From the NCBI GenBank assembly GCA_963785825.1, contig CAWAWQ010000002.1, positions 242,192 through 306,191 of the forward strand: DNA of 64,000 nt. Direction: 5' to 3'. This DNA comes from an uncultured Acidobacteriaceae bacterium. Lineage in GTDB: Bacteria > Acidobacteriota > Terriglobia > Terriglobales > Acidobacteriaceae. The notes beneath the pieces are model-generated. The model saw only the letters and a list, made by a program, of their open reading frames with translations. It did not search any database and was not told the origin of the DNA. The position numbers and the translations under genes were made by a program. Shown here piece by piece: positions 34,422-62,746 of the stretch. Within the stretch, counting starts at the first letter, position 1. Every line of letters begins with the position of its first letter.

Positions 34422-34498
<77 letters not shown>

Positions 34499-36782: not shown

Positions 36783-36792
36783 CTGAGTTAAT

Positions 36793-36863: not shown

Positions 36864-36867
36864 TTTT

Positions 36868-42467: not shown

Positions 42468-44518
42468 CGCACGCCCCTCCACACCATGAAGGCGATGACG
42501 ACGGCCGCCCCTGCGGCAACCCATCCCGCATAGGAGCGAATATTGCCCGATTGCATGTGGCGCATCGCGTCCGAGGTCTCTTGTGCCCGAGCAGCGCCTC
42601 CGTCGACGGCGCCATCGATCAGCCCGCGATCAATGCCTTTCCAGAAGACGCTGGTCGAGAGCGCAATCAGGGGATGGATAATGACCGCACCATAGAGTTC
42701 GTCAACCTTGTACTTTTCCAGAACAAAGGTATAGAGGCCGCCCGCAGACTTGGCCATTCGCGCAGGCAACTCGGGCCGCTTGTAGTACAAGTACCAGGCG
42801 AGCAGGAATCCCAACACAGCAACTGCAACCGAGATCGCGCTGAACATCAGCTCCGTGCTGGGGCCTGCTGTCTCCGGCTCGGCCGCGTTGGCAGGTCCAG
42901 CATTTTCCGCGCCGACTGCATGGAACACCGGCGAGAGGAATGCGTCGAAGCGATCCGAGCCATGTAGAGAGTGCGGCACCCCGACCCAGCCGCCAGCTAA
43001 CGAGAGCAGGGCCAGGATCATCAGCGGCACCACCATCACCCATGGGCTTTCATGGGGGGCGCCGTGGCCGTGACTACCGCCTGCTGCGTGGGCGTCCTGC
43101 GCATCGTGAATTGCGCCGGTGCGGCCTGCATGCTGGGCATCGGTGTCGTGATTATGCCCTGCGGTCTCAGGGTTCGGCCCGCGGTAGTCGCCGAAGAAGG
43201 TCAGGAACCAGAGCCGGAACATGTAGAACGAGGTCATGCCGGCGGTGATCACGCCGATTAACCACAGAACGTGAGCACCGCTGCTCCAGGTCGACCACAG
43301 GATGCGGTCCTTGGAGAAAAACCCGGAGAACGGCGGTAGTCCCGAAATCGCGAACGTCGCAACCGTCATGCACCAGAAGGTGTAAGGAAGATACTTTCGC
43401 AGACCGCCCATGCGGCGCATGTCCTGTTCCCCGCCGAGGCCGTGAATCACCGACCCGGCGGCCAGAAACAACAGCCCCTTGAAGAAGGCATGGGTCATCA
43501 GGTGAAAGATGCCGCCGACGTAATCCGCGACGCCGCAGGCCATGAACATGTAGCCAAGCTGGGATATGGTCGAGTAGGCCAGCACCTTCTTAATGTCCGT
43601 CTGCACAATGCCGATGGAGGCGGCAAAGATCGCAGTCAGCGTCCCGATTATCGCCACCGCCATGAGTGCATCGGGGGCCCGGTGGAAGATGGGACTGGAG
43701 CGCGCCACCATGTAAACGCCTGCCGTCACCATGGTCGCGGCGTGGATCAGGGCGGAGACGGGCGTGGGGCCTTCCATAGCGTCGGGCAGCCAGACGTAAA
43801 GCGGAATCTGCGCCGACTTTCCGGTCGCGCCCACCAGCATCAGCAGGCCGATCGCGGTCAGTAAGCCAGCGCCGGCAGTTTCAATTGGATATTGGCTGAG
43901 GAGTTTCCACAGGCTGTCATACTGCAGTGTGCGGAAGTGCTTGATCAGCAGAAACAGCGCAATGAGGAAACCGAAATCGCCAACACGGTTGGTGATGAAT
44001 GCTTTCTTGCCCGCGTCGGCGGCGGTCTTCTTCAGGAACCAGAAGCCGATCAGCAGATACGACGCCAGTCCTACGCCTTCCCAGCCGACGAACATTAGCA
44101 AGTAGTTGTTCGCCAGCACCAGCGTCAGCATGAAGAACATGAAGATGTTCAAGTAGGCGAAGTAGCGGTAGTAGCCGCCTTCGTGCTCCATGTAACCGAC
44201 GGAGTAAATGTGGATGAGGAACCCGACGCCGGTTACCACCAGCATCATGATCAACGAAAGCTGGTCGAGATAGATGCCATACTCCGCCGAGAACGAGCCC
44301 GCCTTTAACCATGTGGCATAGCGCTCGATGTGCGGGATCTGCTCAGGCGTCAAGCCGGCGAACTGGGCCGCAACCCACAAGGCCATTCCGAACGACGCCG
44401 CCGTGGAGCCCAGCGCGATGGTGTTGACCAGCGCCTTGGGAAAGCGCTTGCCCAGCAAACCGTTGATCGCGGCGCCCGCCAGCGGGAGTAGCGGGATGAT
44501 CCAAAGGTGCATGCTCAT
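42464..44518 (-). CDS. nuoL: NADH-quinone oxidoreductase subunit L
   Basis: 684 aa with '[15 protein letters not shown]' and 'HESPW', and a long C-terminal amphipathic helix region. Confidence 0.93.
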
Positions 44519-44817
44519 AGCTTGAGGAGGTTCACACGATCCACGTTCAACGTTTCGCGCGTACGGAAAACGGCAATGATGATAGCCAGCCCTACCGCCG
44601 CTTCGGCGGCCGCGACCACCATCACGAAGAAAACGAAAATATGGCCGTCCAGCGATTTCAGCTGTGCCGCAAAGGCGACAAATGAAAGATTCACGCCATT
44701 CAACATCAACTCAATCGAAAGAAATATGGTTATGATATTGCGCTTGATCAGAAATCCGGCGACGCCACAGGCGAAGAGAATGGCGCTCAGCACCAGGTAA
44801 TAGGAAAGAGGGACCAT
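44515..44817 (-). CDS. nuoK: NADH-quinone oxidoreductase subunit K
   Basis: 100 aa with 3 TM helices, '[12 protein letters not shown]'. Confidence 0.93.
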
Positions 44818-45339
44818 TTATTCCTCCCTCCGCGCCAGCACCACCGCGCCCATGATCGCGACCAGGATCAGCACCGAGGTGACCTCGAAGGGCAGCAGGT
44901 AACCTCGGAACAACAGTTGCCCAACTGCTTGCGGGTTGCCGAACACGTTACCGCCGTTCATGACGGCCGGACCGCCGATGGCGATCCGATCAAGGCCGGT
45001 CAGATGGCTGACCACCGCGGCCGTGATGCCGAAACCTACGATCAGGGCTGGAACGCCGAGGATCATGGCGACGCGGCTACCGTGCGGCAGGCGCTCTTCT
45101 GCGCCGGCATTCAACAGCATGATGACGAAGACGAACAGCACCATCACCGCGCCAGCATAGACAATGACCTGCACGGCGGCGACAAACTCGGCCCCCAGCA
45201 GCAGATACAGCAAGGCCAGCGATCCCATCACCACGATCAGCGACAGCGCGCTGTTGATGGGGTGCTTCTGCACCAGGAGGTTAATGGCGCCTCCTACGCA
45301 GATCGCTCCGAAGATGAAGAACAGCACAAGATGCAACAT
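44818..45339 (-). CDS. nuoJ: NADH-quinone oxidoreductase subunit J
   Basis: 173 aa. 'VYAGAVMVLFVFVIMLL' is typical of NuoJ. Confidence 0.9.
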   Translation of the reverse strand: MLHLVLFFIFGAICVGGAINLLVQKHPINSALSLIVVMGSLALLYLLLGAEFVAAVQVIVYAGAVMVLFVFVIMLLNAGAEERLPHGSRVAMILGVPALIVGFGITAAVVSHLTGLDRIAIGGPAVMNGGNVFGNPQAVGQLLFRGYLLPFEVTSVLILVAIMGAVVLARREE

Positions 45340-45343
45340 GATT

Positions 45344-45441
45344 TTTTGGGCAGTTGGCAGTTAGCATGTGGCAGTTAGCCAAACAGCCGCGGTTGAACTG
45401 TGCTTTTCACCAACTGCTAAATGCTAAATGCCAACTGCTTA
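45344..45441. repeat. Heptamer-array inverted pair filling the whole nuoH-nuoJ intergenic gap
   Basis: The left arm gggcagttggcagttagcatgtggcagttagcc (45348-45380) faces caccaactgctaaatgctaaatgccaactgc (45408-45438). The right arm abuts the nuoH stop codon. Confidence 0.8.
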
Positions 45442-46473
45442 TCGGATCGCCACCACGAAACTCGTCACCACAATATTGGCAATCGCCAGCGGCAGCAAAA
45501 ACTTCCAACCGAAGGCCATGAGCTGGTCGTAGCGGAAGCGCGGCAACGTGCCGCGCACCCAGATATACAGAAACATGAACGCGAAGACGCGCAAGCCAAA
45601 CCAGAACACCGGCAACAATGACTGCAAAAGCGGTGGCCCGAAGGTTGGGCCAGTCCAGCCTCCCAAAAACAGCACCGACGCGAGGCACGCAACCGTGACC
45701 ATGTTGGCATACTCGGCCATAAAGAACATGGCAAACTTCATCGAGCTGTACTCGGTGTGATAGCCGGCGACCAACTCCGTCTCGGCTTCCGGCAAATCGA
45801 AGGGAATGCGGTTCGTCTCGGCATAAGCCGCCATGATGTAAATAAAGAAGGCGACGAACTGTCCCTTGAACAAGTTCCATTTGGGAATAAAGCCAAACCA
45901 GGTGCCCGCCTGCTGGTTGACGATGTCACTAAGACTGAAGCTGCCGGTATAGATCAGAACGCCGATGAGAGACAATCCCAGAGCGACTTCGTAACTTATC
46001 ATCTGTGCGGACGCGCGCAGGCCGCCGAGCATCGAATACTTGCTGTTGGAAGACCAGCCCGCCAAGGCCACGCCGTAGACCCCGACTGAGGTGACACCCA
46101 GAATCACCAGCAGCCCGATATTGACGTCGGCGATTTGCAGGGGGGTGGAGATGCTGCCTATCTTGATCCAAGGACCGATGGGGATGACTGCGATGGAAGT
46201 GAGCGCCGTGGTCACCGCAATGATCGGCGCCAGCAGGTATAAGGGCTTATTAACGTAAGGCGGTGTGAGGTCTTCCTTAAAGATGAACTTTAAGCCATCG
46301 GCCAGCGGCTGCAGCAAGCCGAAGGGTCCCACACGGGTCGGTCCCCAGCGATTCTGCATGTGACCGACGACCTTACGCTCCAGCCAAACGGTGTAGGCAA
46401 CGGCGGTGAGCAGAACAAAGACCGCAATCAGGATCTTGACGATCGAAACCAGGATGTACGTTCCAATGCCCAT
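45439..46473 (-). CDS. nuoH: NADH-quinone oxidoreductase subunit H
   Basis: 344 aa with '[31 protein letters not shown]'. Confidence 0.93.
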
Positions 46474-46495
46474 TAGGTATTAGTTCTCAGTGAAT

Positions 46496-46520
46496 CGCTA
46501 TTCGCTGTTCGCCTTTTGCC
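46496..46520. repeat. Heptamer array CGCTATT CGCTGTT CGCCTTT
   Basis: Lies 23 nt upstream of the nuoH start. It is nearly identical to the first units of the array at 49086 upstream of nuoG. Confidence 0.7.
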
Positions 46521-46546
46521 AGAGCCGACTCCAACTACTGTCAGAT

Positions 46547-46595
46547 TGTCATCCTGAGCGAAGGCGCGCTTTGCGCGCCGGAGTTGAAGGACCCC
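46547..46595 (+). repeat. MITE-like hairpin element, 'GTCATCCTGAGC...GAAGGACCCC' family
   Basis: Sequence is tgtcatcctgagcgaaggcgcgctttgcgcgccggagttgaaggacccc. Confidence 0.7.
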
Positions 46596-46597
46596 TA

Positions 46598-46686
46598 CCG
46601 CAAACGAAAACCTCAAACGCAAACCGGAAAAACTGGAAATGCGGAACTCTGTAATCCCTGATCCCCGGCCCCTGACCCCTGGTTTT
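46598..46686. repeat. Period-7 arrays (..AAAC/GGAAA units, then AATCCCT GATCCCC GGCCCCT GACCCCT)
   Basis: Read directly. The array ends at the nuoG stop codon (46686), and the CCCCT units match the array at 1564-1598. Confidence 0.65.
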
Positions 46687-49079
46687 CACTCCATTCTTGC
46701 CGCCGGATCGTAATCCGCCGCGCTCTCCAGGTCCGACGGACCGGTACTGTAGCGCTCCATTACGGTGCTCAAGGTCTCGGAGAATCCTCCCAGCGTTCCC
46801 GACGTAAACAGCGTGTCATTGGACGGCATGATGAGTTGCGGATCTCCCGCTCCGGTCGCGCCCGTAATCTGCACCAGTTGGGTATGCTCATCGCCGCCGG
46901 AGAGTAGTCCCAGTCGCGAGATGTCGTAACCCGGTACCAGCCGTTGTATTTCGTCGAGCATAGCCGTGGGATCGTACGGACTCATTTTCGGCTCGAGGTT
47001 GTGACTCGCCAGCCAAACAGCATGGCGGTCTGACTCGCCCGACTGCGCCCCGCGCGTCTGTCCCATGTCGGCGCGCGTTCCTCGGCCGCCGAAGGGCACC
47101 AGCTTGTGCACGTCGTATCCCATGGCGGCGGCGATCCGGATGATGCATTCGAAATCGTTGCGCACCCCGGCAAACTCTCCCGCCTTCTTCAACATCTGCA
47201 GGTCACCGCAGGTGTTGGTAAAGGTGCCGCTCTTTTCGTAGGCATTAGCGACGGGCAATACGACGTCGGCGATGCGCGCCGTCTCAGTCAGGAACATGTC
47301 CTGCACAATGACGAAGCTCTTCGAGAGAGCAAAAGGATCTATGTTGTAGCGTGCAACGGGATTGGATCCGACGACATAAAGCGCCTTCAACTTGCCTTCT
47401 TTTGCGGCGTCCATCATCTGCAGCAAGTTAAGGCCGGGTTGTTTTGGAATCTCGTCCAGCCATTCTTCGTGGAAGCTGGTGGCGCTCGATACCGGTGCAT
47501 AACCCGGCAGCATGTCGGGATAAAGTCCCATATCGGCAGCGCCGCGCGAATTGGCGTAATCGCCCAGGCAGATAAACTTCGCGCTTTGGGCTAGCCCGAA
47601 ATCGACCAGCGCTTTGACGCTATCGCCGCGCAGCTCGGCGCCGAAGATGATGACCAAGTCCTTCTCGTTCTTCAGCGCGTCGCGCATTTGGGTAAGCGCG
47701 TCACGATCGAGCTCTGCGGAAAGCACGGCATCGGCTGCACTGTCGTTACCGGCAAGAAATTGCGCGAAGTTCCCCTCGGAGCCGGGCGCAATTTGCGCAA
47801 ACGCCGCCGCCTGGCGGCGCAGTTTGATGGGCGAGGAATTCACCACATAGAGCTTGGCGCGATGCAGGCGAACGTTGCTGCGGATCTGCCACGCCAGCAG
47901 CGGATGCTGATTGGTCGCATCATTGCCGATCAGCAGGATTGTCGGCGCATTGAATACATCGCGCATGGACGCAGTGGCCTTCGACTTGCCGGCCAGCGCA
48001 GAAGCAAACGCGGAGAAATCCGCGGTGCGGTGGTGGTCGATGTTGTTCGTCGCCAGCACCAGACGCGCGAATTTCTGCAGTAGATAGTTTTCTTCGTTGC
48101 TGGCGTGGTTGGAACCGATCACGCCCACCGCGCTTGGGCCATCGCTGGTCAGCACGTCCTGGAAGTTTTTCGCGATCAACTCGAAGGCCTGCTCCCAGGT
48201 CGCTGAAACAAATTTGCCGTCGCGCTTGATCAGCGGTTGTGTCAGGCGGTCCGGGTGGTTGGCAAAATCGAAGGCATAGCGGCCCTTGATGCAAAGAAAG
48301 TCACCGTTGATGCCGCTCTTATCGCGATTGTCGCCGCGCACAATCTGCATGCCGGTATCAGCCCGGCGCACGCCGAGCGTCGTTTTGCAGCCGTCTCCGC
48401 AGTGGGTGCAGACGGTGCCCACATGCTTCATCTCCCAGGGCCGCGTCTTGTAACGGTAGGCCCCGGAGGTGAGCGCGCCGACCGGGCAGATGTCGATGCA
48501 CATGCCGCACTCTTCGCACTCCAGGTGATCTTCTTTGTTGGGCGCGATCACCGACCCGACATTGCGGTTCTGGATACCGAGCGCCCACACATCCATACCT
48601 TCGCCGCAGACGCGAATGCAGCGATAGCAGAGAATGCAGCGCGGACGATCGAAGTACACCACCGGCGACCATTGCTGCTCCTCGCGGTGGTTCTTCAGGT
48701 CCATGAACTTCGACTCGGCGGCGCCGTATTTGAAGGTCATGTCCTGCAGTTCGCACTCGCCTCCGGCGTCGCAGACCGGGCAATCGAGAGGGTGGTTGGC
48801 GAGCAGCAGCTCAAGCATCGACTTGCGCGCCTGCTTGATCTTCTCGCTCTCGGTGGTGACCACCATGCCCTCGGCAACCGGCGTGGTGCACGCCGTCTGC
48901 AGCTTGGGCATCTTTTCGATTTCCACCAGGCACATGCGGCAGGCGCCCTGCAAGGATAGGTTGGGGTAATAGCAGAAAGATGGCACCTCGATCCCGGTGC
49001 TCTTGCAGGCTTCGATGAGCAGCGTTCCCGCGGGAACGGTGAGTTTCTTGCCGTCGACAGTGAGAGTTACGTCAGCCAT
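46686..49079 (-). CDS. nuoG: NADH-quinone oxidoreductase subunit G
   Basis: 797 aa. Has an N-terminal 2Fe-2S 'CYYPNLSLQGACRMC', 4Fe-4S Cys clusters and a molybdopterin-oxidoreductase-like domain. Confidence 0.9.
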   Translation of the reverse strand: MADVTLTVDGKKLTVPAGTLLIEACKSTGIEVPSFCYYPNLSLQGACRMCLVEIEKMPKLQTACTTPVAEGMVVTTESEKIKQARKSMLELLLANHPLDCPVCDAGGECELQDMTFKYGAAESKFMDLKNHREEQQWSPVVYFDRPRCILCYRCIRVCGEGMDVWALGIQNRNVGSVIAPNKEDHLECEECGMCIDICPVGALTSGAYRYKTRPWEMKHVGTVCTHCGDGCKTTLGVRRADTGMQIVRGDNRDKSGINGDFLCIKGRYAFDFANHPDRLTQPLIKRDGKFVSATWEQAFELIAKNFQDVLTSDGPSAVGVIGSNHASNEENYLLQKFARLVLATNNIDHHRTADFSAFASALAGKSKATASMRDVFNAPTILLIGNDATNQHPLLAWQIRSNVRLHRAKLYVVNSSPIKLRRQAAAFAQIAPGSEGNFAQFLAGNDSAADAVLSAELDRDALTQMRDALKNEKDLVIIFGAELRGDSVKALVDFGLAQSAKFICLGDYANSRGAADMGLYPDMLPGYAPVSSATSFHEEWLDEIPKQPGLNLLQMMDAAKEGKLKALYVVGSNPVARYNIDPFALSKSFVIVQDMFLTETARIADVVLPVANAYEKSGTFTNTCGDLQMLKKAGEFAGVRNDFECIIRIAAAMGYDVHKLVPFGGRGTRADMGQTRGAQSGESDRHAVWLASHNLEPKMSPYDPTAMLDEIQRLVPGYDISRLGLLSGGDEHTQLVQITGATGAGDPQLIMPSNDTLFTSGTLGGFSETLSTVMERYSTGPSDLESAADYDPAARME

Positions 49080-49085
49080 AAAAAC

Positions 49086-49134
49086 CGCTATTCGCTGTTC
49101 GCCTTTCGCTATTGGCTTTTAGCTCTTAGCAACA
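49086..49134. repeat. Heptamer array CGCTATT CGCTGTT CGCCTTT CGCTATT GGCTTTT AGCTCTT AGCAACA
   Basis: Starts 7 nt upstream of the nuoG start codon. Confidence 0.75.
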
Positions 49135-49147
49135 AAACCAAAACTTC

Positions 49148-49200
49148 TGTCATCCTGAGCCAGCCAGCACGCCGTTCGCGCTGGCGAGTCGAAGGACCCC
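49148..49200 (+). repeat. MITE-like hairpin element, 'GTCATCCTGAGC...GAAGGACCCC' family
   Basis: Sequence is tgtcatcctgagccagccagcacgccgttcgcgctggcgagtcgaaggacccc. Confidence 0.7.
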
Positions 49201-49234
49201 TATACGGTTCGGCTCAGTGACTCGCAACATAAGG

Positions 49235-49388
49235 TTGTCATCTCGACCGAGGACTTTAGTCCGAGCGGAGAGACCCGCATTTCGTGCCGTCCCTACGGGA
49301 CTCGGGCCTTATTTATCCGCGTACCCAGCACTCCGCTTCGCTCCGCGCCGGGCTATCATGTCGCCGTCCCACCGAGCGGGACTCTATT
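49235..49388 (+). repeat. Composite repeat: 'GTCATCTCGACCG...GAGAGACCCGCATTTCGTGCCGTCC' unit plus GCCGTCCC..GGGACTC hairpin modules
   Basis: The first part parallels 51958-52015. The second part carries two related hairpins (gtgccgtccctacgggactcgg and cgccgtcccaccgagcgggactc). Confidence 0.6.
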
Positions 49389-49476
49389 CTTGAGTCGCAA
49401 TCGTTTTTCGCATCCCGAAATCTCACCGCACCTCAATCCCACTGGGGAGGCGCCGCGCCCGACTTTGACTGGCTTC

Positions 49477-49527
49477 TGGTCACTGATTGTCACTGACGCG
49501 TCACTAGCCACTATCCAGTGACCACTG
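49477..49527. repeat. Irregular GTCACT(G/A) short tandem repeats at the nuoF stop
   Basis: Sequence is tggtcactgattgtcactgacgcgtcactagccactatccagtgaccactg. It overlaps the nuoF 3' end. Confidence 0.5.
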
Positions 49528-50830
49528 CTTCTTCCAATTCCGCCGTTTTCTCGTACGGACATGGCTTGCCGTCGAGGTGGTCCTCGAACTCCTGCCGGTA
49601 CTTCTGTATGTAGGAAATGATCGGCATCGCCGCCGCATCACCCAGAGGACAGAAAGTTCGTCCCAGCATGTTCTCCGCCAGGTACTTCAGATTGTCGATG
49701 TCTTTCATCACCCCGCCGCCCGAATGCATGCGGGTCAGCGTCTTCTTCATCCAGTCGGTGCCTTCGCGGCAGGGAATGCACCAGCCGCAGCTCTCGTGCT
49801 GATAAAACTGCGTGACCCGAAGCGCGAATTTGACGATGCACATCTGATCGTCGATCACGATCACGCCGCCGGAGCCCAGCATCGAGCCGGCCTTCAGCAC
49901 CGAGTCAAAGTCCATGGCAACGTCGATCTCGTCCGGCGTGAGAATCTGCACCGACGACCCGCCAGGGACGACACCTTTCAGGGTTTTCCCCTTCACCATG
50001 CCGCCGGAGACGTCATAAATCATCTTCTTTAGGTTGTAGCCCATGGGCAGTTCGTAAACGCCCGGTTTCTCCAGTTCGCCGCTCATACAAAACAGGCGCG
50101 TTCCTCCATTTCGCGGCGTTCCCAGGCTGGCGAACCACTCGCCGCCGCCGAGAATGATGTGCGGCACGCTGGCCAGCGTTTCGGCATTGTTGATGACGGT
50201 CGGTCCACCCCACAGTCCGACGACAGCCGGGAAGGGAGGCCGAATACGCGGCACGCCGCGCTTGCCTTCGAGCGACTCCATGAGCGCCGACTCTTCACCT
50301 ACCTCGTAGGCGCCGGCGCCGGAGTGGGTGAAGATGTCGAGATCGACGCCCGAGCCGAAGATGTTCTTGCCGATGAAGCCGCGGGCGTAGGCCTCGGCGA
50401 CCGCCTTCTCCATGATCTCCAGTAGGTAACGGTACTCACCGCGCAGATAGATGTAGCCGGATTTTGCGCCCACCGCCAGCGCTGCAATCATTACGCCTTC
50501 GATCACCGCGTGCGGATCATGCTCGAAAATGAGCCGGTCTTTGCAGGTGCCGGGCTCGCTTTCGTCGCCATTGCACAGCACGTACTTCGGCTTGGGCGAC
50601 TGCTTGGGAACAAACGACCACTTCATCCCGGTGGGGAAGCCCGCGCCGCCCCGACCGCGCAGGTTCGACGCTTTCACCTCGTTGATGATGGCGTCTGGCT
50701 GCATGGTGAGCGCCTTCTGCACCGCCTTGTAGCCTTCCAGTTCCAGATAGCGGTCAAGGTTGGTCGCACCCTTACCAAACCGCTTGGAGACGACCTTTAC
50801 TTCATCGGGATGGGAAACGAGATAAGCCAT
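49511..50830 (-). CDS. nuoF: NADH-quinone oxidoreductase subunit F
   Basis: Contains 'GRGGAGFPTGMKW', 'CNGDESEPGTCKDR' and 'ESCGWCIPCREG'. The likely start is the ATG at 50830 (MAYLVSHPDE), since the track start is a TTG inside the repeat array. Confidence 0.93.
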   Translation of the reverse strand: MAYLVSHPDEVKVVSKRFGKGATNLDRYLELEGYKAVQKALTMQPDAIINEVKASNLRGRGGAGFPTGMKWSFVPKQSPKPKYVLCNGDESEPGTCKDRLIFEHDPHAVIEGVMIAALAVGAKSGYIYLRGEYRYLLEIMEKAVAEAYARGFIGKNIFGSGVDLDIFTHSGAGAYEVGEESALMESLEGKRGVPRIRPPFPAVVGLWGGPTVINNAETLASVPHIILGGGEWFASLGTPRNGGTRLFCMSGELEKPGVYELPMGYNLKKMIYDVSGGMVKGKTLKGVVPGGSSVQILTPDEIDVAMDFDSVLKAGSMLGSGGVIVIDDQMCIVKFALRVTQFYQHESCGWCIPCREGTDWMKKTLTRMHSGGGVMKDIDNLKYLAENMLGRTFCPLGDAAAMPIISYIQKYRQEFEDHLDGKPCPYEKTAELEEAVVTG

Positions 50831-50834
50831 AAAA

Positions 50835-50925
50835 GCAACTAGCAATTAGCGCTTGGCAATTGGCACTTGGCAATTAGCATTTGGCAATTAGCATTTGGCA
50901 CTTAGCATTTGGCACTTAGCCAAAG
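50835..50925. repeat. Heptamer array, ~13 units of RGCAMTT (AGCAATT/GGCACTT/AGCATTT)
   Basis: Sequence is AGCAACTAGCAATTAGCGCTTGGCAATTGGCACTTGGCAATTAGCATTTGGCAATTAGCATTTGGCACTTAGCATTTGGCACTTAGCC. It starts 5 nt upstream of the nuoF ATG. Confidence 0.85.
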
Positions 50926-51300
50926 ACGGATTTAAATCACACCTCCCAGTGTGGCGGTGGCAATTTCGATGTCTTCCCGGCGAAACAGGTGCGGTAGCTC
51001 TCTTACCACAATGGATTCCAAACTTACCCTGCCTCGCTGCTCTAAGCGGTAGCCATTCTCTCCTGCTAGTCAACAAACGATCCTGAATGAATCTGACAAG
51101 CGAGGTTAGCTCGGATTCGTGCCTCTGCCAATTTGCCAATCGTGCAGCCGCTCCGCCCCCCAGAACATCTAGCGTGTCGCGCCGACAGGCCTCCATTAAC
51201 GAGACCAGGCGCGCTAAGTCCCCCGATTCGGTGGTCCCCGTCATGCGGTCTTCGCCTTTTGCGTCCACATCTGTCGCTCAAGTGCTTCGCCGCTAAAAGC

Positions 51301-51370
51301 CCAACTGCTAACTGCCAAATGCCAAGTGCCAAGTGCCAAGTGCCAAGTGCCAGTTGCTATTGCTGCTCCT
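51301..51370. repeat. Heptamer array in opposite orientation (CCAAGTG x4 and variants)
   Basis: Sequence is CCAACTGCTAACTGCCAAATGCCAAGTGCCAAGTGCCAAGTGCCAAGTGCCAGTTGCTATTGC. It is the reverse-complement type of the 50835 array and overlaps the nuoE stop. Confidence 0.85.
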
Positions 51371-51839
51371 TCTTCTTCAGCCCCTCAATCAATTCGTCAA
51401 TCTTCTCCGGCGTCAGGTTCTCGACAAACTCGTAGTTCAGCATCATCGCCGGCGCCCAGGAGCAGGCTCCAATACATTCAACCTCTTCCAGATAAACCAG
51501 CCCATCCGCAGTGGTTTGCTTATTGTCTACCCCGAGCTTCTTCTTGCAGTGCTCAAAGATATCGTCCGCGCCACGCAAAAGGCAGCTCACGTTGGTGCAA
51601 ACCTGGAAGTTGTACTTCCCGATCGGGTGGGTGCGCAGCATCGAGTAGTAGCTGATGACGTTGCGCACTTCCAGGTCCGACAGCTCGATGCGGGATGCGA
51701 TCTCGTGAATCGCTTCCTCCGTCAGTGCCCCGATCTCGTCCTGGATGTAGAGCAGCATGGGAACGAGCACCGAGCGTTTGGTCGGATAATGCGTGACCAT
51801 GGTGGCGAAACGCTGTTCGAGTTGATCGGAGAATTTCAT
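51357..51839 (-). CDS. nuoE: NADH-quinone oxidoreductase subunit E
   Basis: Thioredoxin-like 2Fe-2S motifs 'QVCTNVSCLLRG' and 'EVECIGACSWAP'. The likely start is the ATG at 51839 (MKFSDQLEQ). Confidence 0.9.
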   Translation of the reverse strand: MKFSDQLEQRFATMVTHYPTKRSVLVPMLLYIQDEIGALTEEAIHEIASRIELSDLEVRNVISYYSMLRTHPIGKYNFQVCTNVSCLLRGADDIFEHCKKKLGVDNKQTTADGLVYLEEVECIGACSWAPAMMLNYEFVENLTPEKIDELIEGLKKKEQQ

Positions 51840-51845
51840 GAAATC

Positions 51846-51872
51846 AGCAGTTAGCAATTAGCAATTAGCCAA
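51846..51872. repeat. Short heptamer array (GCAGTTAGCAATTAGCAATTAGCC)
   Basis: Starts 7 nt upstream of the nuoE ATG. Confidence 0.65.
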
Positions 51873-51883
51873 ACCCAAAACCG

Positions 51884-51936
51884 GCGTCATCGTAAGTCAT
51901 GCGTGCGGCAGTTGCGCGTTGAAGTCGAAGGACCCC
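51884..51936 (+). repeat. MITE-like hairpin element, degenerate 'GTCATC...GAAGGACCCC' family
   Basis: Sequence is gcgtcatcgtaagtcatgcgtgcggcagttgcgcgttgaagtcgaaggacccc. Confidence 0.6.
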
Positions 51937-51957
51937 CCTACTTCGCCAAAACCCCAA

Positions 51958-52015
51958 GTGTCATCCCGACCGGCGGCTTCAGCCGGAGCGGAGGGACCTG
52001 CAGTTCGTGCCGTCC
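51958..52015 (+). repeat. MITE-like element 'GTCATCCCGACCG..CGGAGCGGAGGGACCTGCAGTTCGTGCCGTCC'
   Basis: Parallels 49235-49290. The internal hairpin is ccggcggcttcagccgg. Confidence 0.6.
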
Positions 52016-52032
52016 AGCAGAACTGCCTCTAC

Positions 52033-52530
52033 TCAAAATTCGCGCTTGGGTGCGGTCTGCTCTGGACCCAGCCGCCCCGCGAAAATTTCGGCGCGGGAAT
52101 AGTTCTCGGCTCGTATGGGCGATCCCGCCATCCGCCGCACCATGGCAATCTGCCCGATATGCGACAAAGCATCCGCCAGTGCGCCCTGAAACAGCCTCTC
52201 CGCCGCACACGCCAGTTGCTGCGAAGCCAAACAGTCGTCCAGCTCTTGCAGCGCCGCGTAAAACCGCCGCACCTCATCGCTCCACGGCAGCGGAGTCGAG
52301 TCATGCCACTCTTCCTTGCCGCGCGCCATCGATAGCGCCCAGTCCATCAGGTCCCCGATATGCGCCAGGATCTGTCCCGCCGTGCGCGTCGTCTCCGCAG
52401 GATGGAAATCGCCGAACTCAGGCGGCGCGCCGCGCAGCGCCTTGCCGCCGCGGTAGGCAATGGTCGCGAGCACATGGCGCAGGAATCCGCGCTTCTCGTC
52501 CGCGATGACGTTTTGTGTACACGTTGCCAT
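52033..52530 (-). CDS. DinB-superfamily (DUF664/YfiT-like) protein
   Basis: 165 aa predicted as a four-helix bundle with 'ILAHIGDLMDWAL' and 'ALSHIGQIAMVRRMAG' His motifs. Located between nuoD and nuoE. Confidence 0.7.
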   Translation of the reverse strand: MATCTQNVIADEKRGFLRHVLATIAYRGGKALRGAPPEFGDFHPAETTRTAGQILAHIGDLMDWALSMARGKEEWHDSTPLPWSDEVRRFYAALQELDDCLASQQLACAAERLFQGALADALSHIGQIAMVRRMAGSPIRAENYSRAEIFAGRLGPEQTAPKREF

Positions 52531-52547
52531 AATCGTCGCTTTAGAGA

Positions 52548-52673
52548 TCTGCCGTCCCTAGTCTGATTAAATACGACCGAAGTCCCTCAGGGGTTAAAGC
52601 CCAGGCTCATTTCAGGCACTTACGGACGGCCTGAAGGCTGTCCCCTTCAAACTTCGACCTGATCAGAGCTTTC
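52548..52673 (+). mobile_element. MITE-like element (TCTGATTAAGT family), uninterrupted copy
   Basis: Sequence is gtctgattaaatacgaccgaagtccctcaggggttaaagcccaggctcatttcaggcacttacggacggcctgaaggctgtccccttcaaacttcgacctgatcagagc. Confidence 0.75.
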
Positions 52674-52860
52674 CTAACACTTAGTGCCGGCCAGCGCTTT
52701 GATTCAACCGCAGCCTACAGCGACATGATTACCGCTGCCGCCGCTCTGCGGCCCTCCCGTTACTTCGCCACAGCGGGGGCTTACGCCCCCGCCTAAACCC
52801 ATCCCGCCGCGTTGCGGCTGGGCATTGCCCAAAGAAGCTGTAGCTAAAGAAACTATCTCT

Positions 52861-52903
52861 CAGTTGCTAGTCCGTTACTGCTAATTGCTAACTGCTAATT
52901 GCC
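52861..52903. repeat. Heptamer array (CAGTTGC TAGTCCG TTACTGC TAATTGC TAACTGC TAATTGC)
   Basis: Ends exactly at the nuoD stop codon (52904-52906). Confidence 0.7.
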
Positions 52904-54109
52904 TCACCGGTCGCAATCCCCCAGCACAATATCGATGCTGCCAATGGCGGCGACCACGTCCGCGATCAGGCGGCCTTCGCACATCTTGCGCAGTGTCTGC
53001 AGATTCGCGAATGACGGCGAGCGCATATGCACGCGGTACGGCTTCGCCGTGCCGTCGCTCACCACGTAGTAGCCCATCTCGCCGCGGGGCGACTCGATCG
53101 GCATGTACACCTCGCCTTCAGGTACGGTAAAGCCTTCGGTCACGATCTTAAAGTGATAGATGAGCGCCTCCATCTGCGTCTTCATCTTCTCGCGATCGGG
53201 GAGCACAACTTTGGGCGCATCGGCTTTCACGCGCCCTTCGGGCATGCCTTCCAGCGCCTGCATGGCGATCTTCTGCGACTCGCGCAGCTCGGCCACTCGG
53301 ATCATGTATCGTGCGTACACGTCGCCAGCGTTGGAGATGGGCACGTTAAACTTGAAATTCTCGTAGCCGCTATACGGCAGATCGCGGCGGAGATCGACAT
53401 CGATGCCGCTGCCGCGCAGCGTGGGCCCGGTGGCGCACAGCGCAATCGCATCTTCGCCCGAAATGTAAGCCACGCCCTTGGTGCGCTTCATCCAAATCGG
53501 ATTGCTGGTCAGCAGGCTCTCGTATTCATCGACATTGGCGGGAAAGCGGTCGAGAAACCTCTTGACCCGATCGAAGAAGCCCAGAGGCGGTTCCAGCGCC
53601 AGGCCGCCAATGCGGAAGTACGAAGTCATCATGCGCTGACCGCTGACCGCTTCGAACAGCCGCAGCACATCTTCACGCTCGCGGAAGCAGTACAGGAAGA
53701 CGGTCATGGCGCCAATGTCCAGGGCATGTGTGCCCAGCCACACCAGGTGCGAGTTGATGCGGGTCAGCTCGTTCAGCATCACCCGAATCCACTGCGCACG
53801 CGGCGGAATCTCCAGCCCCAGCAACTTCTCTACTGCCAGGCAGTAGGCGAGGTTGTTGGTCATGGGGCAGAGATAGTCGATACGGTCGGTGAGTGGCACG
53901 ACCTGCTGGTAGAACTTGGCTTCGCAGGTTTTCTCGATTCCGGTGTGCAGATACCCAATGTCGGGCATCAGGCGCACGATGGTCTCGCCATCGATCTCCA
54001 GCAGCAGCCGCAGGACACCATGGGTCGAGGGATGCTGCGGGCCCATGTTCAGGACCATCGTCTTGTCTTGCGACGGATCCAGCACCGGAGTGGGAGTCAT
54101 GTGAGCCAT
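52904..54109 (-). CDS. nuoD: NADH-quinone oxidoreductase subunit D
   Basis: 'VLNMGPQHPSTHGVLRL' and the C-terminal 'IDIVLGDCDR'. The ATG at 54109 lies 2 nt after the nuoC stop. Confidence 0.93.
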   Translation of the reverse strand: MAHMTPTPVLDPSQDKTMVLNMGPQHPSTHGVLRLLLEIDGETIVRLMPDIGYLHTGIEKTCEAKFYQQVVPLTDRIDYLCPMTNNLAYCLAVEKLLGLEIPPRAQWIRVMLNELTRINSHLVWLGTHALDIGAMTVFLYCFREREDVLRLFEAVSGQRMMTSYFRIGGLALEPPLGFFDRVKRFLDRFPANVDEYESLLTSNPIWMKRTKGVAYISGEDAIALCATGPTLRGSGIDVDLRRDLPYSGYENFKFNVPISNAGDVYARYMIRVAELRESQKIAMQALEGMPEGRVKADAPKVVLPDREKMKTQMEALIYHFKIVTEGFTVPEGEVYMPIESPRGEMGYYVVSDGTAKPYRVHMRSPSFANLQTLRKMCEGRLIADVVAAIGSIDIVLGDCDR

Positions 54110-54111
54110 GA

Positions 54112-54609
54112 TTAGCGATAGCCCTCGACGGGATAATCCTTGCGCAGCGGATGGCCTTCCCAATCGTCGGGCATCATGATGCGCGTCAGGTTGGGATGCT
54201 GGTCGAAGCGAACGCCGAACAGATCAAAAACTTCGCGTTCAAAGAAGTCGGCGCCCGGCCAGATAGGAGTCAGCGAATCGATATTGGGGTCTTCTCCCTG
54301 CAGGCGTACCTTCAACCGCAGGTACCTCTTATTGGGAATTGAGAAAAGCTGATAGACGACCTCGAAACGCGGCTCGCGTGGATACCAATCGACACAAGTG
54401 ATATCGGCCAGGGCGTTGTATTGCAGCTGCGGATCGTTTCTGAGCGCGAGGCACGCGTCGCGCAGAGCGATACGATCGACCCATATTGTGAGTTCGTTGC
54501 GATCGAACTTGGCGGCTGTGACGGCCACCGCCTTGTGGGCCAGCAACGCGGCCACTTCGGGGCGGTCCTTCAGTTGCTCGATATCAGTGATAGCCGGTCG
54601 AAGTCCCAT
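54112..54609 (-). CDS. nuoC: NADH-quinone oxidoreductase subunit C
   Basis: 165 aa with 'WPGADFFEREVFDLFGVRFDQHPNLTRIMMPDDWEGHPLRKDY'. The start overlaps the nuoA stop (TGATG). Confidence 0.9.
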   Translation of the reverse strand: MGLRPAITDIEQLKDRPEVAALLAHKAVAVTAAKFDRNELTIWVDRIALRDACLALRNDPQLQYNALADITCVDWYPREPRFEVVYQLFSIPNKRYLRLKVRLQGEDPNIDSLTPIWPGADFFEREVFDLFGVRFDQHPNLTRIMMPDDWEGHPLRKDYPVEGYR

Positions 54610-55016
54610 CAGAGCTTCTCCGCCTTGCCCTGCTTGTTCCAGTCGAGCACGCCCTTTTTCCAGACGTACCAGAAACCGGCGAGCAGGATGCCGATATAAA
54701 TCAACATTTCCCAAAACCAGAACATGCCTTGGCCGGTGGATTTCAGATTGCGCTGCACAATGGCCCAAGGATAGAGGAAGACGGCTTCGACATCGAACAG
54801 GATGAACAGCATCCCCACCAGGTAGAACTTCACCGTGAAGCGCTGGCGAGCGTTGCCGACCGGCTCCATGCCGCACTCATAGGGCGACATCTTGGAGGAA
54901 TTGTATTTATGCTGGCCGATAAAGTAGGAGAGCAGCACGATGGCGCAAGCGATGCCGCCGGCGACCAGAATGTGAATCAACAACGGCAAATATCGGGCGA
55001 AGTAGAAATCCGGCAT
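54609..55016 (-). CDS. nuoA: NADH-quinone oxidoreductase subunit A
   Basis: 135 aa from the ATG at 55016, with 'SPYECGMEP' and 'FILFDVEAVFLYPWA'. Confidence 0.9.
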   Translation of the reverse strand: MPDFYFARYLPLLIHILVAGGIACAIVLLSYFIGQHKYNSSKMSPYECGMEPVGNARQRFTVKFYLVGMLFILFDVEAVFLYPWAIVQRNLKSTGQGMFWFWEMLIYIGILLAGFWYVWKKGVLDWNKQGKAEKL

Positions 55017-55130
55017 GATTGCGCTAACGCTCAGAAAACAGCACGCAACAACGGGTAAACATTCGAGTTTAGATTTGCGTGGCGGACATGTCAACCGAGC
55101 GGGAGCAGCGATTCACGCGCAATTCACAAA

Positions 55131-55200
55131 GACAGTTTCGAGTTTCTGGTTTCGAGCTTCGAGCGCAATTCACGAGGATAGATTCAAGTTTCAGGTTTTC
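55131..55200. repeat. GTTTC-type heptamer units and a 30-bp direct repeat upstream of nuoA
   Basis: GCGCAATTCACAAAGACAGTTTCGAGTTTC (55117-55146) and GCGCAATTCACGAGGATAGATTCAAGTTTC (55163-55192). Confidence 0.6.
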
Positions 55201-55275
55201 GCATCACGGAAGTTGCCGCCCGGGATCTCGGCGTGCTTGGGTGCGAGCGGCTGCCATTGTTCAAACTAACCGGCA

Positions 55276-55310
55276 CTTGAAACCGGAAACTGGAAACTCG
55301 AAACTGGTAT
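55276..55310. repeat. Heptamer array CTTGAAA CCGGAAA CTGGAAA CTCGAAA CTGGTAT
   Basis: Abuts the thiS stop codon. Its orientation is inverted relative to the array at 55516-55558. Confidence 0.8.
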
Positions 55311-55510
55311 TATCCCCCGCCCACGAAATGGACGATCTCCAGGCGGTCTCCGTCATTGAGCGAAGTCTCCGCCCATTGCTGCCGCGCAACGATTTCGCGG
55401 TTCAATTCAACGGCGACGCGATCGCTTTTCATACCCAGTTGCTCGATGAGTTGGGCGAGGGAGAGAGGCTCGGGGAAGCTCTTCTTCTCGCCGTTGATGA
55501 ATAAGTCCAT
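55310..55510 (-). CDS. thiS: ThiS/MoaD-family sulfur-carrier (ubiquitin-fold) protein
   Basis: 66 aa, [10 protein letters not shown]...[13 protein letters not shown], with a C-terminal Gly-Gly. Confidence 0.75.
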
Positions 55511-55515
55511 AAAGA

Positions 55516-55558
55516 CAGTTTCGGGTTTCAAGTTTCAAGTTTCAAGCGATAGTTTCAG
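55516..55558. repeat. Heptamer array CAGTTTC GGGTTTC AAGTTTC AAGTTTC AAGCGAT AGTTTCA
   Basis: Starts 6 nt upstream of the thiS ATG. Confidence 0.8.
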
Positions 55559-56613: not shown

Positions 56614-56834
56614 AATCCCTTCCGGAATAGCCGTTGAAATCATCAAGCCTGCTGTAACCTCGATGTTATAATTCCGCTTTGCCCGCTTCGAAGCGATTCG
56701 AGACGGGGCTTTGCCGTGTCTGCGGTGCTTGGGCGCGCCGGCTTGGCTTGTCTCTAAATCCACCGCTAAACGCCGAGCCCTCGATCGGGGCAAGCAGTAC
56801 TCATCCCAAGTCATTCAACGTCCGAGGTTTCCTC

Positions 56835-57581
56835 ATGTCAGGCCATTCTAAATGGGCAACAATCAAGCACAAAAAGGGCGCGCTGGATGCCAAGCGCGGC
56901 AAGATCTTCACGCGGCTAATCAAGGAAATCACCATTGCAGCCAAAAGCGGTGGTGATCCGGAGAAAAATCCGCGTTTACGCGGTGCGGTAGCTGCGGCCA
57001 AGGCCGAGAACATGCCGGCCGATAACATCAAGCGTGCCATTCAGCGCGGCACCGGCGAGCTGCCCGGCGTTTCCTACGAAGAAATCACATTTGAAGGCTA
57101 TGGCCCCGGCGGCGTCGCTATTCTTGTGGAGGTCTCGACCGACAATCGCAATCGCACGGTCAGCGAACTCCGCCATGCGTTTTCGAAGAATGGCGGCAAC
57201 ATGGGCGAAGCCGGCTCGGTGGCCTGGATGTTCCATAAGAAGGGCGACATCGTCATTCCCAAGTCGGCGGCCAAGGAAGACGACCTGATGAATCTGGTGC
57301 TGGAGGCGGGCGCCGACGACCTGAAGGACGATGGCGACAATTGGGAGATCCTGACCGCCCCCTCCTCCTACGAAACGGTGCTGGAAGAGGTCAAGAAGGC
57401 CGGCATCAAGCCCGAGGTGGCCGAGATTGGCATGGTGCCGCAGAATTACACCAAACTCGAAGGCCAGCAGGCCAACACGATGATTCGGCTGCTGGAGGCG
57501 CTGGAAGATAACGACGATGTCGAGCATGTGTACTCGAACTTCGACATCGATCAGAAGCAACTGGAAGAGGTGGCGGGGTAG
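56835..57581 (+). CDS. yebC: YebC/PmpR-family transcriptional regulator
   Basis: '[32 protein letters not shown]' is diagnostic of the family. Confidence 0.93.
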
Positions 57582-57614
57582 GGAAGCCGTCAGCTTTCAG
57601 CCGTCAGCTACCCC
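57582..57614. repeat. Period-7 array GCCGTCA GCTTTCA GCCGTCA GCTACCC
   Basis: Starts immediately after the yebC TAG. Shares the 15-mer GGGAAGCCGTCAGCT with 2641-2655. Confidence 0.65.
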
Positions 57615-62576: not shown

Positions 62577-62746
62577 CACCACAGAGGCACAGAGGCACAG
62601 AGATGTTTTGATCAATTCTTCATTCTGAAACCGCCTGATTTCGTGCTGGAATTGCATTCATGCGCTTCGAAGAGCCGGCTAACCACAGAGGCAACGAGCC
62701 CGCGATCGATTCGAAGGGGCCTCCGTGTCTCTGTGCCTCTGTGGTG
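62577..62746. mobile_element. MITE-like element with CACAGAGG-octamer inverted termini
   Basis: CACCACAGAGGCACAGAGGCACAGAG (62577-62602) faces CTCCGTGTCTCTGTGCCTCTGTGGTG (62721-62746). The outer 18 bp are exact inverted repeats. Confidence 0.7.

Follow-up and report, generated by a model that had tools for sequence, protein, structure and literature searches.

Why should nearly every spacer of a nuo gene cluster open or close with a run of seven-nucleotide tandem repeats, set flush against a stop or a start codon? The question is raised by a stretch of 64,000 nucleotides from an uncultured Acidobacteriaceae bacterium (assembly GCA_963785825.1, contig CAWAWQ010000002.1, positions 242,192 to 306,191 of the forward strand), referred to here as the window, in which an earlier note had drawn attention to such heptamer arrays. 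The window has a G+C content of about 59%, and all positions given below are its own. The arrays belong to a known, functionally unexplained class of repeats and are not a new kind; what is new is the Acidobacteriota host and the comparative evidence for pairing. The reading preferred here, which is held tentatively, is that they are heptamer arrays of the short tandemly repeated repetitive (STRR) type, built by replication slippage and kept as complementary stems between cistrons. That a slippage-built stem is kept by selection and acts after transcription seems somewhat probable, while its specific role, the coupling of a start codon without a Shine–Dalgarno (SD) sequence to the stop codon upstream, is possible but doubtful.

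The window was scanned with Tandem Repeats Finder (TRF) and with our own lag-identity scan, in which an array was defined as at least four units at 76% or higher lag-7 identity. The lag-identity scan returned 14 period-7 arrays, compared with none in five dinucleotide-preserving shuffles, and 0–3 arrays for each of the other periods from 4 to 15. TRF reported about 20 period-7 arrays, the majority of them within 45.3–55.6 kb. By the shuffles and TRF, the arrays are longer than composition predicts, which is the defining property of a long simple-sequence repeat (LSSR). The majority lie in the minus-strand cluster thiS-nuoA-C-D-E-F-G-H-J, flush with stop or start codons; on the coding strand, nearly every nuo spacer opens with a post-stop array, closes with a pre-start array, or does both. 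Three to four motif families recur within the 64 kb, namely TTRGCAN/TGCYAAN, GCGAANA, GAAACTN/AGTTTCN and GGGGYNN.

Nearly all of the sites that the earlier note had listed were recovered as period-7 arrays by TRF and the lag-identity scan, with extents of 1567–1599, 36786–36824 and 36826–36855, 45346–45376 and 45409–45439, 46492–46516, 46656–46681, 49086–49130, 50834–50925, 51301–51359, 51842–51873, 52875–52903, 55133–55164, 55275–55309, 55517–55549 and 57585–57608. Three points of its list are corrected: 2641–2673 holds only about 2.5 units and was missed by both; at 46597–46639 the period is 13/9 instead; and at 49477–49527, where CAGTGAC is spaced at 10–11 nt, no period of seven is present. 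Direct reading bore out its motif types (TTRGCAN/TGCYAAN, CGCTNTT, which is GCGAANA on the coding strand, GGGGYNN, GAAACTN/AGTTTCN and GCCGTCA), and likewise the abutment to codons, with arrays 0–18 nt from a stop or start and pre-start arrays 2–18 nt from the start. The presence of heptamer arrays in the window is confirmed.

Inverted pairs, which had also been described, are present at 36.8 kb, between nuoH and nuoJ, between nuoE and nuoF, between nuoD and nuoE, and around thiS. The 99-nt nuoH–nuoJ spacer consists of TAA, TTRGCAN ×4, a 32-nt loop, TGCYAAN ×4, 6 nt and ATG; the stem fills the spacer, and its predicted minimum free energy is –45.7 kcal/mol (z = –6.6). The nuoE–nuoF arms (51301–51359 and 50834–50925) are complementary across a 375-nt insert, with 51 of 59 positions Watson–Crick in the ungapped register. 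Those of nuoD–nuoE are about 1 kb apart, and the loop holds an open reading frame (ORF) resembling DinB_2 (52033–52530) and repeats like miniature inverted-repeat transposable elements (MITEs). The array after thiS could pair either with the array upstream of thiS or with a complement 75 nt further on, downstream, and the blocks at 55131–55200 are complementary to it. The 36.8-kb hairpin is far more stable on the plus (sense) strand (–30.4 kcal/mol, z –3.7) than on the minus strand (–17.3 kcal/mol, z –1.8) because TTGGCA pairs with TGCTAA through G–U. The array after yebC, TCAGCYN, is the complement of the GCTGAYR type found before starts.

Comparison was made with 160 related loci, 80 from genomes, taken around nuoF, and 80 from metagenomes, taken around nuoE (NuoE 81–93% identical), which are labeled L001 onward. 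An assembly artefact, a possibility that the earlier note had raised, is ruled out because orthologous spacers in these 160 independent assemblies, from metagenome-assembled genomes (MAGs) and metagenomes, share the architecture. The window and the 80 genome loci (1.53 Mb) contain 222 period-7 arrays, 62% of them in the 11% of the DNA outside long ORFs, at a density of 3.3 per kb in co-directional, 1.5 per kb in convergent and 1.4 per kb in divergent spacers. Between co-directional nuo genes one layout recurs across lineages: stop, 0–5 nt, arm, short loop, complementary arm, 0–5 nt, start. It was found in Korobacteraceae-like loci, in other Terriglobales (L007, L009, L016, L053), in Blastocatellia/Pyrinomonadaceae (L050, L051, L074, L078–L080) and in high-GC Acidobacteriota (L061–L063). 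Lineages have units of their own, for example AATTTGT/ACAAATT, GGTCAGT/ACTGACC, AGTTTTC/GAAAACT and CAGTTCY/RGAACTG, and the unit of L002 has 8 nt. Few or no arrays were seen in many Acidobacteriaceae and in all of the non-acidobacterial loci. The nuoD–nuoE and nuoE–nuoF gaps of array-free relatives are tight or overlapping (–8 to +20 nt), and among close relatives the spacers range from 15 to 1078 nt for nuoD–nuoE and from 2 to 468 nt for nuoE–nuoF.

The position of the arrays was assessed in 129 distinct nuo spacers of at least 300 nt, with random placement inside the same spacer as the null model (2000 simulations). Enrichment at the boundaries of coding sequences, which the earlier note proposed to measure, was pronounced: 76 of 95 arrays lay within 15 nt of a spacer end, compared with 5.9 expected and a simulated maximum of 14. 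The end-flush arrays comprised 47 on the start side and 29 on the stop side, and both ends were occupied in 23 spacers.

An inverted partner within 1.5 kb, scoring above the 99th percentile of a transplant null, was found for 67 of 138 intergenic arrays. The variable core position could pair in 41 of 42 hairpins, compared with 20.5 expected under independent motif choice, and C–G, A–U and G–C were all used. The usual nuoE–nuoF spacer of the relatives is a hairpin, (TTCGCNN)n–loop–(GCGAANN)n with n from 2 to 6–8, which commonly reaches into the start codon (...AGCGAATG). At the same place TTAGCTN/AGCTAAN or TTGGCYN/GCCAANA may stand, and the window has TTGGCAN/TGCCAAN; these motifs form one family, TT[ACG]GC[TA]N / N[AT]GC[CGT]AA, both arms changing together. 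This motif-level covariation and the predicted nuoH–nuoJ fold support the hairpins that had been suggested for the oppositely oriented pairs.

The arrays change length by whole units. Where two spacers shared at least 90% identity, 10 of the 23 indels within a period-7 context were of exactly 7 nt (plus one of 21 nt), compared with 9 of 372 elsewhere. Two pairs of relatives differ by one unit gained or lost in both arms, and the thiS leader of L001 equals that of the window plus exactly one TTGAAAC unit. The slippage origin put forward in the earlier note is supported by these exact 7-nt indels, and the comparison of array length between relatives that it proposed revealed unit-wise change. 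The indels, the changes in both arms and the covariation show that slippage proceeds by whole units and that complementarity is maintained. Motifs turn over even between relatives with 94% identical NuoF, and at least 54 pre-start and 60 post-stop motif families are found across lineages, several in one genome. At nuoD–nuoE, short forms are plain hairpins; in long forms the same arms stand at the two ends, and what was the loop holds the DinB_2-like gene or MITE-like elements. The spacers of the arrays tolerate large loop inserts.

Much of this might also arise as a neutral by-product of DNA metabolism, in which slippage would expand seeds, quasi-palindrome template switching would copy one arm onto the other, and insertions would land in the loop of an old short hairpin that had filled the spacer, which would leave the arrays at its ends. 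Unit-sized indels, motif turnover between close relatives and the coexistence of short hairpins with insert-bearing long forms at nuoD–nuoE all agree with it, as do arrays in every spacer type and arms without a bias of G–U over A–C. Moreover, among the long simple-sequence repeats of bacteria a 7-nt unit is the most frequent, and polymerase slippage has been proposed for such repeats (Mrazek 2007, as cited in PMC4679880 and PMC4692102). Nevertheless, six of the seven positions of a unit are uniform and one drifts, where neutral decay would blur them all. A selected mismatch at the seventh position was considered and found no support, because it is pairable in 48% of cases versus 40% in shuffles; that position is merely unconstrained while the other six are uniform, which argues against pure neutral decay. 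In addition, the arms stay complementary through three base-pair types. A purely neutral origin is considered unlikely, and the signals described next also count against it.

A GGAG, GAGG or AGGA tetramer at –20 to –4 was taken as SD-like. None of the 81 array-preceded starts had one, compared with 54 of 134 tight junctions and 69 of 372 long spacers without a start-side array. Counted by motif family on the coding strand, pre-start arrays are A-rich (30 vs 13), and post-stop arrays are T-rich (37 vs 13) and G-rich (29 vs 14), a consistent difference that includes the solo arrays. Among array-bearing spacers, the sense strand folded better in 60 and the antisense strand in 25 (mean –4.6 kcal/mol, Wilcoxon p 1.5e-5), with 450 G–U pairs on the sense and 262 on the antisense strand. 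Array-free control spacers showed a smaller sense bias (mean –1.1 kcal/mol). The complete absence of SD-like sequences before array-preceded starts, the difference in composition and the better folding of the sense strand would not be expected of neutral DNA.

From these patterns we infer that the stems may form in RNA in vivo and may serve coupling. Replication slippage would make and resize the arrays, one unit at a time, leaving a U/G-rich array at or near the stop and an A/C-rich complement ending a few bases before the next start. On the polycistronic RNA the arms would zip into a long imperfect stem, with about six paired positions and one free position per unit, and loop out the whole spacer, which may be as short as 99 nt or, where small genes and MITE-like junk have been inserted, reach about 1 kb. 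The stem would set the next, SD-less start beside the upstream stop and mask it. A ribosome terminating upstream might then melt the base of the stem, so that the start would be exposed or the ribosome handed on, and translation of the downstream nuo cistron would stay coupled to that of the upstream one. Building in tandem would be a cheap route to a long stem, and the arms could grow and re-match because a duplicated unit still pairs in a shifted register. Coupling agrees with the array-free relatives, in which the same nuo genes touch or overlap.

Several observations weigh against selected stems in RNA and against coupling. The evidence for sense RNA over DNA is mixed. In ungapped arm alignments, 57 sense G–U pairs stood against 49 sense A–C mismatches (p 0.5), which is uninformative, and the commonest hairpin type (TTCGCNN/GCGAANN, at nuoE–nuoF) folds equally on both strands, so that RNA is not told from single-stranded DNA at these sites. 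A T/G-rich 5' arm with an A/C-rich 3' arm was rejected as proof of selection on the sense strand, because an inverted repeat (X–loop–reverse complement of X) reads alike on both strands; information on the strand comes only from solo arrays and from motif families by position. Convergent and divergent spacers also hold arrays, at about half the density. The unit numbers of the two arms are only weakly correlated (rho 0.27), the 3' array is commonly longer than the stem, and the solo arrays without a partner (before nuoG, before nuoH and the G-rich ones after stops) are not explained by a stem. The 36.8-kb hairpin cannot serve coupling because a terminator-like stem precedes it and no stop is adjacent. 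Finally, the counts over related loci ignore kinship, and gene calls outside nuo are rough.

The 36.8-kb hairpin, which lies in a 5' leader with no neighboring stop, would be better placed for intercistronic processing or stability, with the stems acting as RNase III-type cleavage sites or as protective 3' or 5' hairpins. Phage T7 early-mRNA hairpins, rRNA processing stems and E. coli REP elements would be the models. The operon RNA would then be cut into segments and spacer inserts excised; a protective 3' stem would stay with the upstream cistron, and the downstream one would gain a short, unstructured, A/C-rich leader. Stems of 25–40 bp with regular 1×1 mismatches and z down to –6.6 suit this possibility, as do the long-range pairs that enclose thiS, the DinB_2-like ORF and the 375-nt ORF in the fashion of rRNA stems. 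Transcript stability is also among the ideas advanced for STRR hairpins (PMC2670836). Nevertheless, processing demands neither a 3' arm that ends at a start nor a start without SD, both of which are observed, and it leaves the solo arrays likewise unexplained. As the reason for the arrays it appears rather unlikely; a broader role at the level of RNA, whether in processing, in stability or in translation, is plausible.

Solo arrays directly upstream of SD-less starts might be better accommodated if the arrays were multimeric sites at which a protein binds single-stranded RNA or DNA, each domain reading about 6–7 nt; candidates would be a cold-shock protein, S1 or a CsrA-like protein. A conserved core of 5–6 nt with 1–2 free positions per unit and the recurrence of a few motif families in one genome would fit, and a precedent exists in the hypothesis of MacGregor for TAACTGA repeats (PMC4679880). 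Nevertheless, at least 54 pre-start motifs occur across lineages, several per genome; because they are so diverse, a sequence-specific reader is unlikely, and strict complementarity of the arms would be superfluous. Protein binding is accordingly improbable as an explanation.

The earlier note had also considered the footprint of a mobile process. Inverted arrays do flank the DinB_2-like ORF, the small ORF between nuoE and nuoF and thiS, inserts, HicAB-like genes among them, are found in the nuo spacers of relatives, and near-identical arrays stand in two spacers, those before nuoH and before nuoG (93% identical, family D3). The arrays could in that case be terminal inverted repeats or recombination sites of cassettes importing the inserted genes, of a kind like MITEs, like repetitive extragenic palindromic (REP) elements with their associated tyrosine transposases (RAYTs), or like integron attC sites. 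The short forms are plain hairpins free of cargo, and the arrays around one and the same inserted ORF differ between the window and L132. Neither target-site duplications nor shared termini were found, transposases and integrases were not seen among the Pfam-scanned proteins of the region, and each insert sits at one conserved site and is not dispersed. A mobile origin is most improbable, and in particular the absence of shared termini and the different arrays around one inserted gene in two relatives speak against it.

Further candidates were rejected. For a sigma-54/sigma-70 promoter reading of the TTGGCA arrays, the scan gave no more than 9 matches of 12, on the antisense strand, and promoters were not in excess; by inspection, a 7-nt array spaces GG and GC by 6 or 13 nt, whereas sigma-54 requires 10. 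Stop codons in all frames, as a reason for a unit that is not a multiple of three, hold by inspection for TTAGCAN/TGCTAAN and fail for TTGGCAN, TTCGCTN and most other units. A clustered regularly interspaced short palindromic repeat (CRISPR) is discounted by a unit of 7 nt, head to tail and without spacers, compared with repeats of 24–48 nt with unique spacers. Rfam at gathering score returned, over the whole window, a single tRNA (34425–34498) and no family on the arrays. A scan of the window for intrinsic terminators gave 18, compared with 13.8 expected, which is no excess, and array arms have no U tails; one called stem, of 5 pairs, touches an array, at the inner end of the post-thiS array (55270–55286), and no other array stem was called a terminator.

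Heptanucleotide STRR and LSSR arrays were already known in 1990, and in several phyla they are common. In heterocystous cyanobacteria, hairpins of 7-bp STRRs lie between hupS and hupL, for which transcript stability or translational coupling has been proposed (PMC2670836), and complementary TTGTCAG and CTGAC-type repeats are among the cyanobacterial STRRs (PMC2408588). The arrays of the window resemble them in their 7-nt tandem units, in their intergenic position inside transcription units and in complementary arrays able to form a hairpin between co-transcribed genes. They differ in that the host is an acidobacterium, the motifs are specific to locus and lineage, and the canonical CCCCAGT, TTGGTCA and CAACAGT never occur even twice in tandem in the window. 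Flush abutment to codons, covariation of the arms and the lack of SD are documented for the arrays described here, and the comparison with cyanobacterial STRRs does not extend to these points. Both the likeness to STRRs and the non-cyanobacterial host had been judged correctly in the earlier note, the nearest genomes being those of Acidobacteriota, Terriglobales.

LSSRs, with units of 5–11 nt (Mrazek et al. 2007), include the heptamers GGGAATC and GGGGAYT of Xanthomonas and Nostoc; the GGGAATC repeats of Xanthomonas vary in length between species, and some are inverted (Rehm et al. 2015, PMC4692102). Like these, the present heptamer is over-represented and intergenic, varies in length between close relatives and sometimes forms inverted pairs. 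The arrays at 46656–46685 and 1564–1599 are also G-rich; the former has a canonical G-quadruplex motif on the sense strand, and 46656–46679 (minus strand) is the only place in the window with at least four runs of at least three G separated by loops of 1–7 nt. Most arrays, in contrast, are not G-rich and are predicted to form Watson–Crick stems and not quadruplexes. Direct repeats of TAACTGA are found in marine Beggiatoaceae and in some Cyanobacteria and Bacteroidetes, with a proposed post-transcriptional role (MacGregor 2015, PMC4679880). These also lie a few bases upstream of starts without a canonical ribosome-binding site, as the pre-start arrays do. In that system a single motif is used throughout the genome and the repeats are nearly all direct (one of 170 is indirect), whereas the present one has many motifs and a rule of inverted pairing; TAACTGA occurs once in the window and not in tandem.

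The REP elements and bacterial interspersed mosaic elements (BIMEs) of enterobacteria and pseudomonads are imperfect palindromes located in operon spacers and after stops, and are credited with stabilizing the upstream mRNA. Liang, Rudd and Deutscher are said to have reported in 2015 that the upstream gene is translated less when a REP lies no more than about 15 nt from its stop. The stems described here have the same two kinds of location. A single consensus of 20–40 nt is common to the REPs of a genome, which RAYTs spread, whereas the present stems have a 7-nt period, no shared consensus and unit-wise change of length; no RAYT (Y1 transposase) domain turned up among 20 window proteins scanned with Pfam. 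The intercistronic RNase III hairpins of the phage T7 early mRNA and the processing stems of rRNA are long and imperfect or enclose genes. The long intercistronic or gene-enclosing geometry predicted here is alike, but those stems are not made of tandem repeats. No paper describing heptamer arrays in Acidobacteria was found in the open-access texts searched.

Genes and period-7 arrays of the window, in order of position; array units are given on the coding strand.
Feature	Position	Strand	Basis
G-rich array GGGGTCA GGGGCTA GCGGTTA GGGGCCA, directly 3' of trpD stop	1564–1599	minus	TRF (period 14/7), sequence
trpD	1597–2640	minus	Pfam (Glycos_transf_3)
Weak GCTGAYR array, about 2.5 units, adjoining trpD start (2638–2640) upstream	2641–2673	minus	sequence
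atpE	36422–36736	plus	Pfam
TTGGCAN ×4–5, 5' arm of adjacent hairpin, 3' of atpE and terminator-like stem	36786–36824	plus	
TGCTAAN, 3' arm of 36.8-kb hairpin, 2–3 nt before ATG (36868) of ABC ATPase gene	36826–36865	plus	
nuoK	44515–44817	minus	Pfam
nuoJ	44818–45339	minus	Pfam (Oxidored_q3)
TGCYAAN ×4, 3' arm, 6 nt upstream of nuoJ start (45337–45339)	45344–45379	minus	
TTRGCAN ×4, 5' arm, directly after nuoH stop (45439–45441)	45409–45438	minus	
nuoH	45439–46473	minus	Pfam
Solo GCGAANA array (AAAGGCG AACAGCG AATAGCG), 18 nt upstream of nuoH start	46492–46516	minus	
G-rich array GGGGTCA GGGGCCG GGGATCA GGG, just 3' of nuoG stop	46656–46685	minus	
nuoG	46686–49079	minus	Pfam
GCNAANN array grading GCTAA to GCCAA to GCGAA, 6 nt upstream of nuoG start (49077–49079)	49086–49134	minus	
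nuoF	49511–50830	minus	Pfam
TGCCAAN/TGCTAAN, about 13 units, 3' arm, ends 3 nt before nuoF start (50828–50830)	50834–50925	minus	TRF (score 116)
Insert between nuoE–nuoF arms: small ORF, frameshifted	50926–51300	minus	
TTGGCAN, about 8 units, 5' arm, contains nuoE stop TAG (51357–51359)	51301–51359	minus	
nuoE	51357–51839	minus	Pfam
TGCTAAN array, 3' arm of 1-kb long-range pair, ends 2 nt before nuoE start (51837–51839)	51842–51873	minus	
TTAGCAN array, 5' arm, directly after nuoD stop (52904–52906)	52861–52903	minus	
nuoD	52904–54163	minus	Pfam
nuoC (ORF, start unrefined)	54112–54876	minus	Pfam
nuoA (ATG 55014–55016)	54609–55016	minus	Pfam
GAACYN/GAAACTN units, two blocks, thiS–nuoA spacer, more than 115 nt upstream of nuoA ATG	55131–55200	minus	
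AGTTTCN array, directly after thiS stop (55310–55312)	55275–55309	minus	
thiS	55310–55510	minus	Pfam
GAAACTN array, ends 6 nt before thiS start (55508–55510)	55516–55558	minus	
yebC	56679–57581	plus	Pfam
TCAGCYN array (GCCGTCA GCTTTCA GCCGTCA GCT), directly after yebC stop	57582–57614	plus	TRF

The gene names assigned earlier (nuoD, nuoE, nuoF, nuoG, nuoH, nuoJ, thiS, trpD and yebC) were upheld by Pfam, which also identified the neighbor of thiS as nuoA. NuoF of the window shares 94% identity with its counterpart in a Candidatus Korobacteraceae MAG and 73–83% with those of other Terriglobales, which places the source in the Acidobacteriota. The 684-aa ORF below nuoK (42464–44518, minus strand) is probably nuoL. 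In the cluster nuoA-C-D-E-F-G-H-J-K (44515–55094), nuoB (the 20-kDa subunit) and nuoI (the ferredoxin subunit) were not found between their usual neighbors, and both are presumably encoded elsewhere in the genome.

Small accessory genes seem to settle preferentially in the nuo spacers. The DinB_2-like ORF between nuoD and nuoE, inside the nuo operon (minus strand), encodes 165 aa and has a weak Pfam match (E 0.003). In many relatives the same site holds an insert of about 500–1000 nt, and several of these begin or end with coding sequence resembling that ORF. The small ORF between nuoE and nuoF, of about 113 aa, is intact at the same site in L132 (3828–4114); the copy in the window is frameshifted near '...LLTSRRE / NGYRLE...', which makes it a pseudogene or reflects a sequencing error, and the 126-aa ORF read from it gave no Pfam match. 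L001, the closest relative, has by eye a HicA/HicB-like toxin–antitoxin pair between nuoF and nuoG (11285–11830), and a TGCTAAT array immediately precedes its nuoG start.

The MITE/REP-like elements that lie in nuo spacers between the heptamer arms form two families, 'GTCATCCTGAGC...GAAGGACCCCTA' and 'TGTCATCYCGACCG...GGAGRGACC...GTGCCGTCC'. Copies were located at 46540–46600, 49150–49205 and 51888–51940, and also at 49236–49292 and 51959–52015; related copies (TGTCATCCCGAGCGA...GAGGGATCT) are present in the spacers of many relatives. In L083, L085, L090, L098, L100, L108–L111, L121, L139, L142 and L152 the nuoE–nuoF heptamer hairpin is replaced by a complex palindrome of about 150 nt, GGGTAGAGCGGACCTTYAGGTCCGCG...CGCGGGCCTGAAGGCCCGCTCTACC, with predicted folds of –70 to –110 kcal/mol, and a solo GCGAANN array sometimes stands between it and the start codon. 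The repeat at 46597–46639 lies in the nuoG–nuoH spacer between the G-rich post-stop array and a MITE-like element; it is A/C-rich on the plus strand, with a period of about 13 (ACCGCAAACGAAA), and G/T-rich on the coding strand.

The thiS leader (GAAACTN array, GTCTTT and ATG; 55495–55548) has a second copy upstream of nuoA, in which GTG follows the array and GTCTTT (55112–55198). This GTG opens a mini-ORF of only four codons (GTG AAT TGC GCG TGA), which L001 shares and which ends there in an ATGA overlap; it may encode a leader peptide or be a relic. Outside the nuo cluster, inverted 8-nt arrays (CACAGAGG ×3 and CCTCTGTG-type ×3, at 62577–62604 and 62718–62746) flank about 115 nt between two convergent ORFs. 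They follow the hairpin principle of the heptamer arrays with a period of eight and an unusually conserved unit, and similar CACAGAG/CTCTGTG units occur in distant Acidobacteriota loci (L007 1748–1854, L050 2204–2236, L074 2324–2425).

For the biology of these bacteria, the arrays offer a comparative system within one conserved operon, in which tight junctions, repeat hairpins of 2 to 13 units and arms about 1 kb apart around inserted genes can be set side by side. Covariation, codon-flush position and the lack of SD give rise to three separable hypotheses: coupling, processing and neutral origin. If the origin were neutral, the arrays would be fast-evolving strain markers for uncultured soil Acidobacteriota. 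If coupling or excision were true, either would explain how essential multi-subunit operons survive the colonization of their spacers, and a new SD-independent mode of initiation would be added. A wider generalization, regarded as unlikely, is that Acidobacteriota in general, and perhaps other SD-poor phyla with STRRs, use such heptad-zipper stems as a device that does not depend on sequence; operons would thereby tolerate long or cargo-bearing spacers, through ribosome transfer across the base of the stem or through RNase III excision of the looped-out cargo. Were this so, tandem repeats would be the route by which stems grow and re-match after each insertion, and ribosome transfer across the stem base would be a bacterial counterpart of ribosome shunting.

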